The notes: a model not told the origin generated them from the letters alone. A stretch of DNA of 64,000 nucleotides from Chloroflexota bacterium (GCA_016190815.1 JACPPT010000006.1:2723-66722); one strand, 5' to 3'. Shown: positions 5,054-62,756, numbered from the stretch's first letter. Numbers and translations: made by a program.

Positions 5054-5170
5054 CGGTTTTGTCCATAAAGCCTATTAGCAAGACCGCTGCCACTCTGAGC
5101 CCTTCGGCCCCAAGCGGGCCTCGAGGACAAGCTCCGCGAAGGGTCTGCCCTTATGACTTTTTGTGCAAGG
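5054..5170. mobile_element. MITE-like element, family B, copy 1 (about 117 bp), flanked by a 10-bp direct repeat ggcctatttc
   Basis: Shares its ends and a core (ctgagcccttcggcccc..ctccgc.aagggtctgc..tgactttttgtgcaaggcg) with the copy at 35774-35940. A direct repeat sits at 5044-5053 and 5171-5180. It lies between convergent gene ends. Confidence 0.6.
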
Positions 5171-5174
5171 CGGC

Positions 5175-6131
5175 CTATTTCAGAGAGGAAAGGATGGCTT
5201 CAGCGCCCTTCACCAAGTCCTGTACTACCTTATCGGCGCCGACTACGTCTGTTATTAGCCCTGCGTCCTCCCCACAATATAAGGGCCCATCCTCCAGCTT
5301 CCCATCAAGTAAAACAGCGCGGGCCCTTTCTGCCGACATGAGATCGATTACACCATCCCGAGCAGCCCCTTCTGACTCCAAAGAGAGAACTTTGGCAACA
5401 AACTTGCCCTTCAACACACGGCTATGTGTTAGGCTGCGGGTCAGTACAGTGGTGCCCGTATCTATCGCCTTTGCTATGGCTTCTTTGACATTCCTGTGAG
5501 CTATGCACTCAGTTGTTGTAATAAAACGAGTCCCGATCTGAATCCCATCAGCACCCAGGGCCAGGGCTGCTGCGAACCCTCTTCCATCGGCAATGCCCCC
5601 GGCGGCAATAACAGGTATTTCAACTGCATCCACAATTTGTGGAACCAGCACAAAGGTCGTCAGTTCGTCAAAACCGGTGTTCCCGCCGGCCTCATATCCT
5701 TCAGCTATGACGGCGTCCACTCCTGTTGCTTCTGCACGCTTGGCATGCCTAACCGAGGCCACCACATGCAACACCTTGACATTTGCGTTCTTGAGGTAGC
5801 TGGTGTAGAGTGCCGGATTGCCCGCGGATGTTATGGCCACTCGAATTCCACCCTCAACAGCCGCGTACATAAGCTTCTGGATATTGGGTAGATTGAGGTT
5901 AAAGGTAACACCAAAGGGTTTCTCAGTGAGGCGCTTTACCCTTTTCATCTGTTCTCGCAAGTTCTTTACTTCATCCCCACGCGCAGACATGCCGGCATTG
6001 GGAATGATAACCCCAAGGGCACCAGCGTTGGAAACGGCTGCTGCCAGCTCCGCACTGGATATCCATGCCATCCCCGCCTGGATGATGGGATATTCTATGC
6101 CCAGAAGCTGACAAACTCTTGTCCGTTTCAT
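5175..6131 (-). CDS. NAD(P)H-dependent flavin oxidoreductase of the nitronate monooxygenase / 2-nitropropane dioxygenase (FabK-like) family
   Basis: TIM-barrel FMN protein homology. The conserved start MKRTRVCQLLGIEYPIIQAGM is taken as the start. The ORF track begins 9 codons earlier. Confidence 0.75.
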   Translation of the reverse strand: MKRTRVCQLLGIEYPIIQAGMAWISSAELAAAVSNAGALGVIIPNAGMSARGDEVKNLREQMKRVKRLTEKPFGVTFNLNLPNIQKLMYAAVEGGIRVAITSAGNPALYTSYLKNANVKVLHVVASVRHAKRAEATGVDAVIAEGYEAGGNTGFDELTTFVLVPQIVDAVEIPVIAAGGIADGRGFAAALALGADGIQIGTRFITTTECIAHRNVKEAIAKAIDTGTTVLTRSLTHSRVLKGKFVAKVLSLESEGAARDGVIDLMSAERARAVLLDGKLEDGPLYCGEDAGLITDVVGADKVVQDLVKGAEAILSSLK

Positions 6132-16221: not shown

Positions 16222-17168
16222 TTCCTCACCTCCAGCTTCTCGAATATCCTCTTTACACTGTCCGCACCTGGCCTGGGCCTATGTATTATGGGTGGCACCT
16301 TCCCTTTTACCAGAGCTCTAAAGCCCACGGGGATATACCCTATCAAGGCTTTGATGTTGAAGAGGCCAGCGGATTCTATAGGCACACGCAATTCGTCCAG
16401 CCAGCCGCTATGCTTTACGGAACGTGCTATGCTCTCGCTGTGACGAGAGCCGATATTATTGGTGAACCCAACCTCCATTGCCTTGGCGCGAAGGGCCAGA
16501 ATTCTCTCCATGGGTGCTACATTCTTGGGGCATTGCTGAACGCACTCGAAACAGCGAGTGCAATCCCATATGCCCGATCTCTTACTCAGCTCCCTGAGTC
16601 TCTCCTCGCTTACGCCATCTCTTGGATCAGCAACGAACCTGTAGGCTTTGGCAAGAGCCGCTGGGGCCAGGAAGCTCTTATCCACTGTAAGAACGGTGCA
16701 ATCGGATACACAGCACCCACACATTATGCAGTTCATTACACCTGCGAGCTCCAGCATAGCCGAGTTGGGCACAACATATTCCCTTTGCGGCGGTGGGCCC
16801 TCTGGGATGAGCCATGGTGTTACAGCTTGCACCTTACTCCAGAAAGGCTTCATCTCCACAACCAGGTCCTTGATAACAGGCATATTGCCCATAGGCTCGA
16901 CGACTATCTCCCCAGTCTTGGATGCAAAGTTCTGGATTCTGCTCTTACACGCCAGATGGGCATGGCCATTTATATGCATGGCGCAGGAACCGCAAATGGC
17001 GCTGCGACACGAGCAGCGCAAAGCGAGAGAGCCATCTACCTCATCCCGAACTTGAAGGAGAGCATCCAGGACAGTGAAATAATCTGGGACATCCAGAGTG
17101 TACTGATCATAATAGGGTGGCTTTCCGGCTTCGGGGTCGAACCTTCTTACCTTGAAGCTTACTTGCAT
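16218..17168 (-). CDS. sdhB: Succinate dehydrogenase/fumarate reductase iron-sulfur subunit
   Basis: 2Fe-2S and 4Fe-4S cysteine clusters (CSCRSAICGSC, CIMCGCC, CTRCFEC). Confidence 0.9.
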   Translation of the reverse strand: MQVSFKVRRFDPEAGKPPYYDQYTLDVPDYFTVLDALLQVRDEVDGSLALRCSCRSAICGSCAMHINGHAHLACKSRIQNFASKTGEIVVEPMGNMPVIKDLVVEMKPFWSKVQAVTPWLIPEGPPPQREYVVPNSAMLELAGVMNCIMCGCCVSDCTVLTVDKSFLAPAALAKAYRFVADPRDGVSEERLRELSKRSGIWDCTRCFECVQQCPKNVAPMERILALRAKAMEVGFTNNIGSRHSESIARSVKHSGWLDELRVPIESAGLFNIKALIGYIPVGFRALVKGKVPPIIHRPRPGADSVKRIFEKLEVRK

Positions 17169-18841
17169 CAGTAAGTCCTCCTCTCGGGTTGCCAGCGGGT
17201 GATGGTCACCGGCCTGTATTCCAGCCTCGGGCCGTCAGCGGTGCAAAAGGCAAGGGTGTGTTTCAGCCAGTTGTTATCGTCCCGTTGTGGGAAATCCATC
17301 CGGGAGTGAGCACCTCGGCTCTCCTGCCTGGCCAGAGCGCCCGTAGATATAACCTCGGCCAGGTCCAACATAAAGCCTAGCTCTATTGCAGCCAAAAGAT
17401 TTGTGTTGAATACTCTTCCCTTGTGCTGAATATGGACTCCCTTGTAGCGCTCCTTCAGTTCTTTGATTTTATCCACAGCTTTGGCGAGGTTTTCCCTTGT
17501 TCGAAAGATACCCACATTGGCTTTCATTGTGGTTCCCATCTCAAGTCTCAGCTTAGCCGCGGTCTCCCCCCGGTCTTCCCTGGCAAAAAGGGATTTTATG
17601 CGCTTCTCTTCCTCGGCCACAGCGCTCTCAGAGACTGCTGTTGCCGGAACATCGTTCACATAGTCGGCTGCGCCTGCCCCTGCTCTTCTGCCAAAGACCA
17701 CCGTCTCCAGAAGTGAGTTGCCGCCCAGTCTATTGGCTCCGTGAACACTTACACATGCACACTCGCCTGCCGCAAAAAGCCCGGGCAGAGGCGCCTTGCC
17801 TTGTGCGTCAGTCTTGACCCCACCCATCTGGTAGTGCATGCCCGGCCTGACTGGTATCGGCTCTTTTAGCGCATCTATGTCAGCGTAGTCCAAGGCCAGT
17901 TCACGAATCTGCCCTAGCTTTTGCATTATCAATTCTTTCCCCAGATGCCTTAGATCCAGGAGAATACACTCATCAACACCACGACCTTCATCTATCTCCG
18001 TCTGCTCACCCCTGGAGACGACGTCTCGCGCAGCCAGCTCCATCCTCTGGGGAGCATAGCGTCCCATGAACCTCTCCCCCTTGGCATTCACGAGGTAGCC
18101 ACCCTCTCCCCTGGCACCCTCCGTTATCAGAACGCCGCTGGTCTTAAGAGTTGTGGGATGAAACTGCACGAACTCCATATCCATGAGAGGCGAGCCTGCC
18201 CTGTAGGCCAGACTCATGCCGTCTCCGGTGCATATCAGCCCGTTGGTAGTGGGGTGATACACCCTCCCCAGCCCTCCTGTGGCCATGATAACAGCCTTTG
18301 ACCTGATGGCTTCGAGCTTGCCTGTGAGCATATCCATGGCAACGACCCCACAGCAAACTCCGTTTTCTACAATTAGAGAAAGGCAGAACCACTCCTCGTA
18401 GACCTGCACCCCCATCTTCAAAAGCTGCTCATACATCACGTGAAGAATGACCTGGCCCGTTATATCGGAAACAAAGCAGGTCCGTGCGAATCCAGCACCT
18501 CCGAAGGGCCTCTGAGCCAGCTTCCCGTCCTCCCTCCTGTTAAAGGCAACCCCCATATTCTCAAGTTCGATGATGTCAGCAGGTGCTTCTCTGCACAGGG
18601 TTTCTACGGCGTCCTGGTCTCCCAGGTAGTCGCTGCCCTTAACGGTGTCAAAGGAATGATTCTCCCAGGAGTCATTCTCCCCCAGAGCAGCGTTTATGCC
18701 TCCCTGCGCGGCAGCGGAGTGGCTTCTTACCGGGTGGACCTTGGATATGATGGCTACATCAACATTTTTCTTCTTTGCTTCGTAGGCCGCCCGCATACCT
18801 GCCAAGCCTGCGCCTATAATCAGGACATCATGCTGCAACAT
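17168..18841 (-). CDS. sdhA: Succinate dehydrogenase/fumarate reductase flavoprotein subunit
   Basis: FAD-binding N-terminus DVLIIGAGLAG, RSHSAAAQGG His-FAD region, and full length. No signal peptide. Confidence 0.9.
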   Translation of the reverse strand: MLQHDVLIIGAGLAGMRAAYEAKKKNVDVAIISKVHPVRSHSAAAQGGINAALGENDSWENHSFDTVKGSDYLGDQDAVETLCREAPADIIELENMGVAFNRREDGKLAQRPFGGAGFARTCFVSDITGQVILHVMYEQLLKMGVQVYEEWFCLSLIVENGVCCGVVAMDMLTGKLEAIRSKAVIMATGGLGRVYHPTTNGLICTGDGMSLAYRAGSPLMDMEFVQFHPTTLKTSGVLITEGARGEGGYLVNAKGERFMGRYAPQRMELAARDVVSRGEQTEIDEGRGVDECILLDLRHLGKELIMQKLGQIRELALDYADIDALKEPIPVRPGMHYQMGGVKTDAQGKAPLPGLFAAGECACVSVHGANRLGGNSLLETVVFGRRAGAGAADYVNDVPATAVSESAVAEEEKRIKSLFAREDRGETAAKLRLEMGTTMKANVGIFRTRENLAKAVDKIKELKERYKGVHIQHKGRVFNTNLLAAIELGFMLDLAEVISTGALARQESRGAHSRMDFPQRDDNNWLKHTLAFCTADGPRLEYRPVTITRWQPERRTY

Positions 18842-18954
18842 TCTGCACCATCCTTAGCCCTGGATTTGCATTTCCCTATGAGGCAATATTAACCACGAAA
18901 CACCATCGAGGAAGTGTATCACATATGAACACAATCTACAAGCTTTTTTATGAC

Positions 18955-19052
18955 ATCGTTTACAAACCCCGTTCGCCCTGAGCTTTGTCGAAGGGCCGTT
19001 CATGGTTCGACAAGCTCACCACGAACGACTAGAACAGTTGTTAAACGCTCTC
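18955..19052. mobile_element. MITE-like element, family A, copy 1 (about 98 bp, 58-bp identical core, internal extended hairpin)
   Basis: About 93% identical to 37195-37290. The core ccgttcgccctgagctttgtcgaagggccgttcatggttcgacaagctcaccacgaacg contains a nested inverted repeat. Near-direct flank repeats are ttttatgac and ttttgtgac. Confidence 0.6.
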
Positions 19053-19065
19053 TTTTGTGACGGTT

Positions 19066-19623
19066 TCATTTGCGAGGGTCTCTTTCCGTCAATACCATCA
19101 AGAGGCCGGCTATGCTCTTGGAATCTTGAATCTCCCCTTGCCGAATCATCTCAGATATCCTGCTCAAAGGGACGCGAACCACCTCTATCTTTTCATCGAT
19201 ATCCGCTTCAAGAGAGCTTGGTATTAACTGGGTCGCCAAATATAGGTGCATAAGCTCAGTGCTATACCCTGGACTTATATAGAAGGCGCCGATTCTCTCT
19301 ATTTTTTGCGCAGTATGCCCTGTCTCCTCTTGAAGCTCCCTTATTACAGTTTCCTCAGGTTTTTCTCCAGGCTCAACACCCCCTGCGGGCACTTCCAGAA
19401 GGACACGCTCTGCCGGTTTACGGTACTGTCTCACTAGAAGAACGTTCCCCTGGGAGTCCACCGGGATTATAGAGACCGACTCGCTGTGCTCAACTATCTC
19501 TCGCTGGGTAGTTCGGCCGTCAGGCAGCTCAACAGTGTCTATTCTAAGTCCTACGACGTGTCCCTTGTAGATGCGTCGGATCCTAAGTGTCGGCTCTTTA
19601 GACAATTCTTTTTCAGACGCCAA
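19066..19623 (-). CDS. NUDIX hydrolase (ADP-ribose pyrophosphatase-like)
   Basis: Nudix box GGVEPGEKPEETVIRELQEETG. Confidence 0.8.
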   Translation of the reverse strand: MASEKELSKEPTLRIRRIYKGHVVGLRIDTVELPDGRTTQREIVEHSESVSIIPVDSQGNVLLVRQYRKPAERVLLEVPAGGVEPGEKPEETVIRELQEETGHTAQKIERIGAFYISPGYSTELMHLYLATQLIPSSLEADIDEKIEVVRVPLSRISEMIRQGEIQDSKSIAGLLMVLTERDPRK

Positions 19624-19628
19624 CTCAG

Positions 19629-20102
19629 CTAGTCCATATGCCGAATCATAGCGATTTCATCGCAGTCAGGGAACTTCGGGCAGCGGGCACACTCCCCGAA
19701 GACCTTCCTGGGCAGTGTCATTATGTCAACTGTTTGAAACCCGAAGCGCTCGAAGAAACCCGGCCTGTAGGTAAGACAGAACACTAAAGGTATTCCCAGG
19801 GCTTTTGCTTCCTTAAGGCACGCTTCCACTATTTTAGAGCCGACGCCCTGGGACTGGCGTTCCTCTGACACCGCTACAGATTTAACCTCTGCCAAGTCAG
19901 ACCACAATATATGAAGAGCCCCACACCCCAGAACATCCCCCCCATCTCTGACTACAAAGTAGTCTCTCAGGTTTTCGTATATGTCTGTGATGGGGCGATG
20001 CAGCATCTCCCCCTTATCCGCATAATGGTTTACCATCTCATGGATTTTGGGGGCATCCGCAACACTGGCCTTTTCTGCCTTGAGATCCTTCCCTACTTTC
20101 AT
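19629..20102 (-). CDS. GNAT-family N-acetyltransferase (short ArgA-like amino-acid N-acetyltransferase)
   Basis: Acetyl-CoA binding pattern VAVSEERQSQGVGSKIV, 157 aa. Confidence 0.7.
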   Translation of the reverse strand: MKVGKDLKAEKASVADAPKIHEMVNHYADKGEMLHRPITDIYENLRDYFVVRDGGDVLGCGALHILWSDLAEVKSVAVSEERQSQGVGSKIVEACLKEAKALGIPLVFCLTYRPGFFERFGFQTVDIMTLPRKVFGECARCPKFPDCDEIAMIRHMD

Positions 20103-35773: not shown

Positions 35774-35940
35774 AGCTTTGCACATAAAGCCCCTTAGAAA
35801 GGCTGTTGTCACCCTGAGCCCTTCGGCCCCGAGTGGGCCTCGAGAGCCTGCCCTGAATATAATGAAGGGGCAGGCTCCGCAAGGGTCTGCTTCTTAGCTA
35901 GATTCTTCGCTGCGCTCAGAATGACTTTTTGTGCAAGGCG
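35774..35940. mobile_element. MITE-like element, family B, copy 2 (about 167 bp), flanked by a perfect 10-bp target-site duplication gaagaaacct. It is inserted into the 3' end of hemW.
   Basis: Direct repeat at 35764-35773 and 35941-35950. Terminal inverted repeats cttTGCACAtAAAG / CTTTtTGTGCAagg. Internal 9-bp hairpin agcctgccc/gggcaggct. Homologous to copy 1 at 5054-5170. Confidence 0.7.
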
Positions 35941-37141
35941 GAAGAAACCTCACAAACACCTCATTGCCCAGGAGTCGGCCTCTCTGGGTGAGGTATAGGT
36001 ATCCGTTTGCCTGTGCCAGGAGCCCCAGAACCTTGAATTCCCCTATCTGCGTTTCGTAGATGGATGTGACCTCTTTCCCAAAGCGCTGGGCAAAAGCTGC
36101 CAGTTCCACGCCTCTAACAAGCCTCAGGCCGAGAATCATCGTCTCCGCCATCTCCAGCGATTCATCTATATTTTCCGAATCCCTTACTGGGCCAAGCTTT
36201 CGAATAGTTTCCGCAGAAAGAGCACCCTGTATACCCTGGGTAGCTTCCCGTGCCAGATCGCCTGTTTTTTCAATATATGTCCTGGGTCTCAGAACGTTGG
36301 AGAAACGAAAGCGACCCAAAAAGGAGTGGGCACCTGCACCCAGACCGAGATAGGGTCTGTTCAGCCAGTATGTCATATTGTGAAGGCACTCCTTTTGAGG
36401 TTTTGCCCAGTTTGAGATTTCGTAGTGGGTGTAGCCGGCCTTTCCCAGCATTTCCTCAGCCATTACGTACATGTCAGCCGCCAGGTCCTGATCAGGCTCC
36501 GCCACAGAGCCAGAGCGCACCTCTTTCCACATGGGGGTGTCTTCTTCAATCTGAAGGGCATACAGAGACAAATGCTCCGTCTCCAGAACCAGGGACTGCT
36601 TCAGGGTTGCCTCCCACTCGCCGAGGGTCTGGCCTGGCAAACCGTAGATCAAGTCCAAATTTGTGTTGATAAAGCCGGCCCTTCTGGCAAGGCGGCAGGC
36701 ATCTATCGCTTCTTGTGAGGTGTGTCGGCGACCGAGGGCCTTTAAATGGCCGTCATTGAAAATCTGGACACCGATGCTCAGCCGATTCACACCCAGGGAA
36801 AGCAATCCCCTTAGAAACCCAAAGCTCAGGTCGCCGGGGTTGGACTCGATGGTTATCTCAGCATCTGGCGAGACGTTCATGAACCTACGGCATTGTCCCA
36901 GCACACGCCCGACATCGCCAAGAGACAAAAGGGATGGCGTTCCACCGCCAAAGAAGATGGTCCTGACATCGGCCCGGCCTTTCAGGGCTTGGCCCCAGAG
37001 ACCTATCTCCTCCTCCAAAGCATCTACGTATTGGGGAATCAACCCCTCAAGGCCTGCGTAGGTATTGAAGTGGCAATAGTTGCACCTGGAGGCACAGAAC
37101 GGGATATGCAAATAAAGGCCCAGGTTTTCTCTAAAGGTCAT
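35894..37141 (-). CDS. hemW: Radical SAM heme chaperone HemW (coproporphyrinogen III oxidase-like); the C-terminal 16 aa are read from the inserted MITE
   Basis: CASRCNYCHF radical-SAM motif and HemN-like C-terminal domain. The stop codon lies inside repeat element B. Confidence 0.8.
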   Translation of the reverse strand: MTFRENLGLYLHIPFCASRCNYCHFNTYAGLEGLIPQYVDALEEEIGLWGQALKGRADVRTIFFGGGTPSLLSLGDVGRVLGQCRRFMNVSPDAEITIESNPGDLSFGFLRGLLSLGVNRLSIGVQIFNDGHLKALGRRHTSQEAIDACRLARRAGFINTNLDLIYGLPGQTLGEWEATLKQSLVLETEHLSLYALQIEEDTPMWKEVRSGSVAEPDQDLAADMYVMAEEMLGKAGYTHYEISNWAKPQKECLHNMTYWLNRPYLGLGAGAHSFLGRFRFSNVLRPRTYIEKTGDLAREATQGIQGALSAETIRKLGPVRDSENIDESLEMAETMILGLRLVRGVELAAFAQRFGKEVTSIYETQIGEFKVLGLLAQANGYLYLTQRGRLLGNEVFVRFLPPCTKSHSERSEESS

Positions 37142-37194
37142 CTCAGGGAAAGAATATCACCAACGGAAGCTCTCCTCAATGGCCCACGCAAGAG

Positions 37195-37290
37195 ATCGTT
37201 TATAGACCCGTTCGCCCTGAGCTTTGTCGAAGGGCCGTTCATGGTTCGACAAGCTCACCACGAACGGCTAGACAGTTTTTAAACGCTCTC
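37195..37290. mobile_element. MITE-like element, family A, copy 2
   Basis: About 93% identical to 18955-19052 over about 96 bp. It lies in the divergent hemW/selB intergenic region. Confidence 0.6.
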
Positions 37291-37374
37291 TATGCAAGCC
37301 TCAGCTACAAGATACCCCGGAAATGGATTGCGTGCGTAGCTGGCATTATGTTATATTTGAACCACCGAGGTATT

Positions 37375-62144: not shown

Positions 62145-62756
62145 TTACTTCTTGATTGGAGTTGGTGTCGGAGTTGGAGTTGCGGGAGCTGCCACATGTA
62201 TTGGAGCGCTGGCAATAGAGCCAAGATTGCCAATCGCCCTCACAGTATAAAGCCCTTCCTTGACAGCCGCTGGCAACGCCAGGCTGTGCGTCGCGAAGGC
62301 ACCCGATTCGTTGGACTTGAACTCCTTCCACGTTCGGGTGAGGCCTGAAATGCCAGCGACAATCTCCACCACAATGGTCTCATTTGGTGCAAAGCCAGAT
62401 CCATGAATGGACACCGAGCTACCTACAGGTACATGTGGAAATCTTTCCAGATCGCTTGTCATTATGACTATAGTGGCCTCTACCTGGGGAGCTGGCTTGC
62501 CTTCAGGCCCCGCTGCCCCTGCCGGTCCTGTTGCCCCCGCTGGCCCTTGCAGTCCTTGCAAACCTCGCTCACCTGGCGCCCCTTGTGGCCCTGTTGCTCC
62601 TGCTGGTCCCCGTTCACCCTGTGGCCCCGCAGTCCCCCGTTCGCCTTGTGGCCCTGTTTGCCCCGCCGGCCCTGTGCAAGCAGAAGCAAAAACTAGTGCA
62701 AGGAGAGCAACCAGAATGGTTATCCACATCCATTTAGACCGTAACAGTTTATGCAA
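62145..62756 (-). CDS. Collagen-like triple-helix-repeat lipoprotein (signal peptide with lipobox, about 19 G-X-Y triplets, globular domain, Pro/Thr-rich tail)
   Basis: Lipobox LVFASAC. Triplet region [59 protein letters not shown]-terminal [13 protein letters not shown] start with RBS aaggagg. Confidence 0.7.

Follow-up and report, generated by a model that had tools for sequence, protein, structure and literature searches.

A short palindromic repeat in a Chloroflexota genome, probably a MITE, is built around a double-hairpin core that occurs across bacterial phyla

The analysed stretch of Chloroflexota DNA, 64,000 nt long and here called the window, contains two nearly identical palindromic repeats, which on the sequence evidence are quite probably copies of a non-autonomous MITE of about 98 bp, formed around a double-hairpin core that crosses the borders between phyla. 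As a kind of element the window repeats are known, they belong to the MITEs, and it is the conservation of the box in their core between phyla that is the unusual feature. Several of the traits by which MITEs are recognised are present: small size (<300 bp) without coding capacity, terminal inverted repeats, and dispersed copies with unrelated flanks. The initial annotation had left the choice between a MITE/REP-like element and a regulatory RNA or operator shared by redox genes; the inverted repeats, the probable 8-bp target duplications and the dispersed relatives favour the MITE, and the evidence speaks against the regulator.

The 59-nt core is an exact match found twice on the plus strand of the 64-kb window, at 18969–19027 and 37208–37266, where shuffled sequences are expected to give none. 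With the preceding C counted the identical stretch is 60 nt, and the core is therefore 59–60 nt. Aligned together with their flanks, copy A (18954–19052, plus strand, 99 bp) and copy B (37193–37290, plus strand, 97–98 bp) differ at 6 of 98 columns, two of the differences being 1-nt gaps, which gives an identity of about 94%. The limits of the repeat are set by this alignment at about 18954 to 19052 and 37193/4 to 37290. Beyond these limits the similarity breaks off at either end and the flanks are unrelated, which makes this a dispersed repeat and rules out a segmental duplication. No third copy was found elsewhere within the 64 kb. Two same-strand copies of about 98 bp had been described before, and the alignment agrees with their coordinates to within 1–2 nt; the near-identity also stands, with the earlier values of 93% and a 58-bp core replaced by those given here. 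The nested hairpin that had been proposed is predicted on both strands of both copies, with energies of -29.8 to -35.5 kcal/mol and z between -2.5 and -4.5 (for copy A -29.8 kcal/mol on the plus and -35.1 on the minus strand).

The window element is an imperfect palindrome throughout, and can be read as layers: a shell, the core, and flanking direct repeats. The core, whose layout was taken from a comparison with 139 family members, reads CCGTTCG-CCC-T-GAGCTTTGTCGAA-GGG-CCGTTCA-TGG-TTCGACAAGCTC-A-CCA-CGAACG, that is, two inverted hairpin modules, and the first box has a 1-nt insertion of T. This T-BOX, TGAGCTTTGTCGAA in copy A, lies at 18979–18992 between the complementary triplets CCC and GGG, and at 37218–37231 in copy B. 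The second box with its following base, BOX'-A (TTCGACAAGCTCA in copy A), lies at 19006–19018 and 37245–37257, all on the plus strand. In copy A the flanks of BOX'-A, CCGTTCATGG and CCACGAACG, form the 9–10 bp stem of hairpin 2.

The shell consists of terminal inverted repeats of about 13–15 nt, (A)GATCGTTTAYARAC ... TTAAACGCTCTC, or in short form AGATCGTTTA...TAAACGCTCT. In the predicted fold of copy A the left repeat, CATCGTTTACAAACC (18954–18968, plus strand), is paired with the right one, TTGTTAAACGCTCTC (19038–19052, plus strand), about 10–11 of the 15 positions being complementary. The relatives L139 and L144 have these ends in common with the window element. Immediately outside the shell of copy A are putative target-site duplications of 8 bp, TTTTATGA at 18946–18953 and TTTTGTGA at 19053–19060, identical at 7/8 positions. 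Those of copy B, CACGCAAG at 37185–37192 and TATGCAAG at 37291–37298 (plus strand, like those of copy A), agree at 6/8, with GCAAG exact and the boundary offset by 1 nt relative to copy A. In the metagenomic locus L139, also recorded as L141, a relative that shares this shell is flanked by a 7/8 direct repeat, GACATTAG/GACATTAT. We calculated the chance of such direct repeats, with boundaries fixed to within 1 nt, to be about 0.3% for a 7/8 and about 4% for a 6/8 match. Together the direct repeats of copies A and B and of L139 point to a probable 8-bp target-site duplication, of which the two window copies alone would be no proof.

Shells are not restricted to the window. About one tenth of the family copies have a palindromic extension of 30–50 nt beyond the core, and the window copies belong to this class. 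The clearest case is a 133-bp element of Moraxella type with ends GGTATTGTTAA, found in Moraxella lacunata and a related viral-collection contig (L002 3095–3228 and 5285–5418; L037, L101 and L111). All five copies with both ends in the locus are flanked by perfect 8-bp duplications, CAGATTTT, GATTATTT, CAAAAATT, CAAAGCTG and AAAATTCA. Perfect 8-bp duplications are also seen at loci L016 and L018, and a 7/8 match at L017, and these three loci have mutually unrelated inverted-repeat shells. Flanking matches of at least 7/8 are enriched, 47 being observed as compared to about 19 in a control with mismatched flanks. The check for target-site duplications proposed in the initial annotation thus gives imperfect repeats in the window (7/8 and 6/8) and perfect 8-bp ones in sister families with shells. 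The same annotation had named target-site duplications together with a lack of positional bias as the sign of a purely selfish MITE, and the finding falls on that side, because the probable duplications go together with the unbiased placement described below. One of the Moraxella-type insertions was situated directly after the apparent 3' end of a tRNA gene (...GGTTCGAGTCC...ACCA).

The element was probably inserted at both window sites by a staggered cut that left the 8-bp duplications. Such duplications imply a transposase of DDE type, which would have been supplied in trans from elsewhere in the genome. The presence of one core in unrelated shells might be explained if the central foldback palindrome converts a single insertion-sequence end into an inverted pair, and MITEs could in this manner form around the core repeatedly. 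Against the MITE reading it can be held that no autonomous element with matching ends was found: the 64-kb window has no such transposase gene and no longer element with the ends of the repeat, and a search of plasmids with the Moraxella-type shell matched no parent insertion sequence. The two boundaries also disagree by 1 nt, the duplications in the window are imperfect, the window holds two copies, and the near-identity of the core across phyla goes beyond ordinary MITE biology.

Well-known bacterial MITEs are Correia/NEMIS in Neisseria, ERIC/IRU in enterobacteria, RUP in pneumococcus and Nezha in cyanobacteria. Our element resembles them in being about 100 bp, non-coding and palindromic throughout, in its terminal inverted repeats and probable short target duplications, and in its dispersal over intergenic and intra-operon spacers, where MITEs are co-transcribed as stable hairpins. 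To our knowledge bacterial MITE families are confined to one genus or family. Unlike them, the present family has a central 50–60 nt that is nearly identical across phyla, surrounded by inverted-repeat ends that are wholly different between lineages.

The genes named in the initial annotation (NUDIX, sdhA, hemW and selB) were all confirmed by the gene context. The stop of the NUDIX gene (19066–19623, minus strand) is followed after 13 nt by copy A, which in turn is 114 nt upstream of the start of an SdhA/FrdA-like flavoprotein gene (17168–18841, minus strand, start 18841), which is followed by genes for an Fe-S subunit and a CCG-domain subunit. After one NCBI entry of 100% identity, the closest homologue of this SdhA is only 71% identical. 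Copy B makes up about half of the 206-nt divergent gap between the gene for a HemW/HemN-like radical-SAM protein (start 37141, minus strand) and selB (start 37348, plus strand), and is 54 nt upstream of the hemW-like start codon. The placement of the copies thus differs, A being just past a stop in a co-directional pair and B in a divergent gap. The only open reading frame across the copies begins MVRQAHHERL (19002–19253) and matched no family in Pfam or NCBIfam. The initial annotation had called the proteins with this beginning spurious, and spurious they are; the repeat is better annotated as a mobile repeat.

A cis-regulatory RNA or operator shared by the anaerobic redox genes sdhABE and hemW would fit the observation that both copies lie upstream of a minus-strand, redox-related start codon, at the distances of 114 and 54 nt given above. 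However, copy A comes straight after the NUDIX stop, copy B is as near to selB as to hemW, and the same boxes are found on both strands, so that the signal is strand-symmetric. No sigma-70-like promoter or intrinsic terminator was predicted in or around copy A or B. The window had no match in Rfam, and a permissive scan of 18900–19100 returned only a chance match to PhrS (E = 8). The family as a whole adjoins unrelated genes and includes 20 copies situated between convergent genes, where 5' regulation is impossible. We therefore regard a shared redox regulator as very improbable, and sdhABE and hemW have no link through the repeat. If the element is a MITE, its effects on sdhA, hemW and selB would be incidental. 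It is probably transcribed in the NUDIX–sdhA spacer and in the hemW and selB leaders as a hairpin of -30 to -35 kcal/mol, which could alter mRNA stability or read-through without being a dedicated regulator.

By a crude longest-ORF call, 97 of 143 distinct family copies are clearly intergenic, 32 touch the edge of a reading frame, and 14 lie deep within one; the last are mostly from G+C-rich genomes, where spurious long reading frames are common. The orientation of the flanking genes could be assigned for 88 intergenic copies, of which 60 lie in tandem, 20 in convergent and 8 in divergent gaps. For intergenic copies the upstream stop is at a median distance of 34 nt and the next start at 44 nt. 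The ORFs around some 150 copies showed no recurrent neighbour beyond generic ABC-F ATPases, MsrA and histidine kinases. Other neighbours are umuDC, narXL, and phage capsid and tail genes; in M. osloensis plasmids, for instance, the element is found in the umuD–umuC and the narX-like/narL intergenic gaps. The positional bias that the initial annotation wanted examined is accordingly absent: across genomes, the copies show neither a preference for 5' regions nor a connection to redox genes.

We scanned for the pattern GAGCTT(N0-1)GTCGAA-N5-30-TTCGACAAGCTC, for which we calculated about 0.2 chance matches in the genome collection. The exact double box was found at no fewer than 120 loci in species-representative genomes and at 13 loci in the viral collection, and a separate scan of metagenome contigs gave 20 loci with the T-insertion variant of the box. 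Relatives of the window element also occur in metagenomes in unrelated contexts. The carriers among the matches listed are Alpha-, Beta- and Gammaproteobacteria, Bacteroidota, Actinomycetota, a Synechococcus (Cyanobacteria), Chloroflexota (Dehalococcoidia, Anaerolineales, Caldilineaceae and Ardenticatenaceae), Nitrospirales, Ignavibacteriales, a Peribacteria (CPR) MAG, a Treponema and a Sulfurovum. Among these listed matches the double-hairpin core is thus present in bacteria of about ten phyla, and in addition on plasmids and a phage contig. A BLAST search with the window element found the core on plasmids and chromids of Moraxella osloensis, Sphingobium, Comamonas, Polaromonas and Methylotuvimicrobium, and there was no annotation beneath these plasmid and chromid matches. 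The sub-type of the window, with CCC/GGG and TGG/CCA triplets and CCGTTCG outer stems, has nearly the same sequence in Dehalococcoidia, Legionella, Methylococcales and one viral-collection contig; among the complete Dehalococcoidia genomes with this sub-type are OY763089.1, OZ252238.1 and OZ244564.1. Such near-identity of a non-coding core between phyla means that vertical descent is insufficient as an explanation, and that horizontal spread or a very strong constraint is needed.

The box was also observed in a phage contig that is AT-rich and codes for capsid and tail proteins, where 11 kb of the structural module contain at least seven box hairpins, one in nearly every intergenic gap, with outer stems GTCA/TGAC (L005 and L008–L012, IMG/VR contigs, e.g. 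IMGVR_UViG_3300025154_000037).

The initial annotation had suggested an Rfam search with the hairpin. Apart from the window, Rfam 15 was run on 38 carrier loci from many phyla, and no family matched on the elements. Full-text searches for the box strings and for typical spurious peptides (e.g. PFDKLR) gave nothing relevant, a description outside the searched literature being possible. The peptides encoded by the box are presumably common among the hypothetical proteins of environmental genomes, and the sequence is for that reason probably familiar to annotators, though nameless.

A comparison of 139 distinct family copies gave the architecture of the core. Each module consists of the 13-nt box TGAGCTTGTCGAA (or its complement), a 3-bp stem that covaries, and a 7-nt outer stem specific to the lineage. 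In 137 of the 139 copies a T precedes the first box, and in 134 an A follows the second. The triplets on either side of the T-BOX are complementary in 127/139 copies and those around BOX' in 117/139, and since more than 20 different triplets keep this complementarity, it is true covariation. The alternative pairing of the triplets in one long hairpin is at chance level (mean 1.5 of 3). In 93 of the 139 the outer stems are paired at 6–7 of their 7 positions. Their sequence follows lineage, CCGTTCG/CGAACGG being the commonest, TGTCA/TGACA typical of Bacteroidota and the phage contig, and CCGCTCA/TGAGCGG of sphingomonads. The unit is accordingly a hairpin of about 33 nt, with a stem of 10–11 bp and a conserved tip of 11–13 nt, and the element is two such units inverted. 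Full-length copies are found at L016, L118 and L147, but it is more common for the inner halves of the lower stems to be missing, as in hairpin 1 of the window copies. Because the two halves are inverted, the same pair of hairpins, or one long hairpin, appears on either DNA strand and in transcripts read either way. In folding predictions the isolated unit folds as expected and the doublet prefers the long hairpin, so both conformations appear to be available.

The exact boxes were imposed by the scan pattern, and the invariance of the box in this sample is partly by construction. Variants that were not imposed nevertheless keep complementary flanks: TGAGC-CTGT-CGAA, in 34 of 37 cases, as well as CCGT, TTGC and the GNA-triloop form TGA-GCGNAGC-GAA. 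In a Sphingobium variant the closing T...A has changed to C...G, and in a Comamonas copy the box is interrupted by 13 extra bases that separate GAGCTTG from GTCGAA. From these variants we infer that the tip may consist of Y-R and G-C pairs bracketing tandem G.A pairs and a small variable loop. The GNA-type box is predicted to fold with tandem G.A pairs, and its GCGNAGC we take to be an unusually stable DNA mini-hairpin. The box hairpin (13 nt, Y-GAGC-N4-CGA-R, with covarying stem) might then be the recognition element of a widespread protein or mobility system, spread by plasmids and phages and captured repeatedly in unrelated MITE shells, and this we put forward tentatively, as possible rather than likely. 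Other identities were considered from the sequence and rejected, namely a hammerhead-like core, mimicry of a tRNA 3' half, rrn boxA, sigma-54 and sigma-70 boxes, a LexA/Cheo box, an IHF site and the CS-6 single-strand-origin motif; the likeness was limited to one sub-variant, or the consensus failed.

Very stable hairpins on both strands could also mean that the element mainly serves the host, by protecting mRNA 3' ends, attenuating read-through, or binding nucleoid or topology proteins, and that it is kept by selection. The typical placement near stops and inside operons, with its median of 34 nt from the upstream stop, would agree with such a role, as would the density in the phage structural module and the GNA-type box with its mini-hairpin motif. 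A copy also persists at one orthologous site in Sphingobium, with flanks about 85% identical. However, no U-tract terminators were found, and the target duplications, the unrelated shells and the presence on plasmids are left unexplained. A role as a hairpin that stabilises mRNA or modulates read-through is compatible with the data and also with mobility, for REPs and Correia elements combine the two. We consider it quite unlikely that service to the host is the main nature of the element, and return to the MITE as the preferred reading. The hairpins share with intrinsic terminators the G+C-rich stem near gene ends, but differ in the T-run, which is absent after the hairpin on either strand of either window copy.

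The majority of the family are bare cores, much like REP doublets, with a palindromic extension of about 11 nt beyond the box, and no clear target duplication was found at them. Since most members are such cores, without shell or clear duplication, a second, hairpin-based route of spreading may exist. The family further includes single hairpins, nested copies and tandem arrays. In Agromyces sp. NPDC060279 (L043 6086–6215) five half-units (GGTTCGC-TGAGCCYGTCGAA-GCG-TCT) are repeated in tandem every 26 nt ahead of a canonical doublet, which implies that the module is able to form arrays. A chromid of Comamonas endophytica has a tandemly duplicated 70-bp unit with a single box hairpin (L154 29430–29570), and at 19930–20037 the copy with the 13 extra bases, which lie in its first box. 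In the convergent gap between orthologous dhmA and regulator genes on Sphingobium chromids (L155–L160), five strains have the variant doublet C-GAGCGNNGTCGA-G, and in strain TomTYG65 the second half in the same gap has been replaced by a canonical T-BOX hairpin, CCGTTCGCCC-TGAGCTTGTCGAA-GGGCG, which shows turnover at a fixed site. The apical N positions of the copies in this gap vary between strains, and GAGC...CGA is kept.

These observations bear on the possibility that it is the hairpin doublet alone that moves, as in REPINs, with an enzyme of HUH/RAYT type reading the 13-nt box on single-stranded DNA and with shell and 8-bp repeats as secondary additions. Bare doublets without clear duplication, single hairpins, arrays, nested copies and the half-replacement in Sphingobium are all in line with it. 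The order BOX...BOX' is seen 114 times and the reverse 3 times, which also agrees, though it is partly a sampling effect, and a conserved tip on covarying stems is the expected product of recognition by a protein. REP, BIME and REPIN elements with their RAYT (TnpA-REP) transposases have been described (PMC3116915, Bertels & Rainey 2011; PMC3733652, Di Nocera et al. 2013; PMC6006769, Quentin et al. 2018), and the box strings do not occur in these three papers. The present family resembles them in its unit hairpin of about 33 nt, in the inverted doublets that fold as two hairpins or one, and in being extragenic, multi-copy and often situated just past stops. It differs in that the GTAG or CGTC tag is absent from both unit and flanks of the window element, and in that the box is cross-phylum whereas REP families are specific to a species or genus. 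Furthermore, REPs insert without target duplication, and none that is clear is seen at the bare cores, but the shell-type members, probably including those of the window, have 8-bp duplications, which are not made by HUH transposition.

A tblastn search with E. coli RayT as query gave matches on one plasmid from Chloroflexota and on plasmids from Methylomonas. The RAYT-like transposase on the Chloroflexota plasmid CP069395.1 (L162 2393–3426) is 41.5% identical to the query and has on its flanks several REPs of the classical type with a GTAG tag (GTAGGGTGCGC...GCGCACCCTAC), which shows that genuine REP/RAYT systems exist in Chloroflexota and that they are unlike the window element. This RAYT thus adjoins GTAG REPs and not the box, and the RAYTs of the Methylomonas plasmids have neither beside them. 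Nor was there a cognate RAYT or a recurrent Y1 transposase among the ORFs near about 150 family copies, for the latter a weak test. Taken together, we find it unlikely that the doublet alone is the mobile unit. By analogy with both kinds of system, the element is best described as a MITE-like unit built round a REPIN-like doublet. There is also a likeness to integron attC sites, which are imperfect palindromes at gene 3' ends with conserved outer and inner boxes and a variable centre, and for which single-strand folding matters. Unlike in attC, the outer stems CCGTTCG...CGAACGG have the opposite polarity to R'' RYYYAAC ... R' GTTRRRY, and there are no cassette arrays beside an integrase.

REPs, MITEs and other small palindromic repeats are as a rule restricted to one genus. 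What deserves attention is therefore the core of about 50 nt, a double hairpin shared in nearly identical form by Chloroflexota, Legionella, Methylococcales, Moraxella and others. The core family is probably a steady source of false small reading frames and of breaks in metagenome assemblies. If the box is read by a protein, the hairpin would be a pan-bacterial mobile module of a kind that has no entry in the catalogues.

The window has another dispersed repeat family, a larger MITE-like element with copies at 5058–5175 and 35777–35945 and ends TTTGCACA(T)AAAG / CTTTTTGTGCAA. Inside the longer copy, at 35906–35918 on the minus strand, is a related box of the same superfamily, GTCA-TTC-TGAGCGCAGCGAA-GAA, and the shorter copy has a degenerate BOX' (GGACAAGCTCC). 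With the box common to both, the two repeat families of the window seem to be related through the hairpin module. The hemW/HemN-like reading frame (35894–37141, minus strand) runs into the longer copy and has its stop codon inside it (35894–35945), so the annotated C-terminus is probably derived from the element. Finally, a region at 62500–62672 contains imperfect repeats with a 9-nt period (CCTGCTGGTCC-like), among them five 29-nt copies of 69–100% identity, and its pattern is that of a collagen-like Gly-X-Y coding repeat on one strand.
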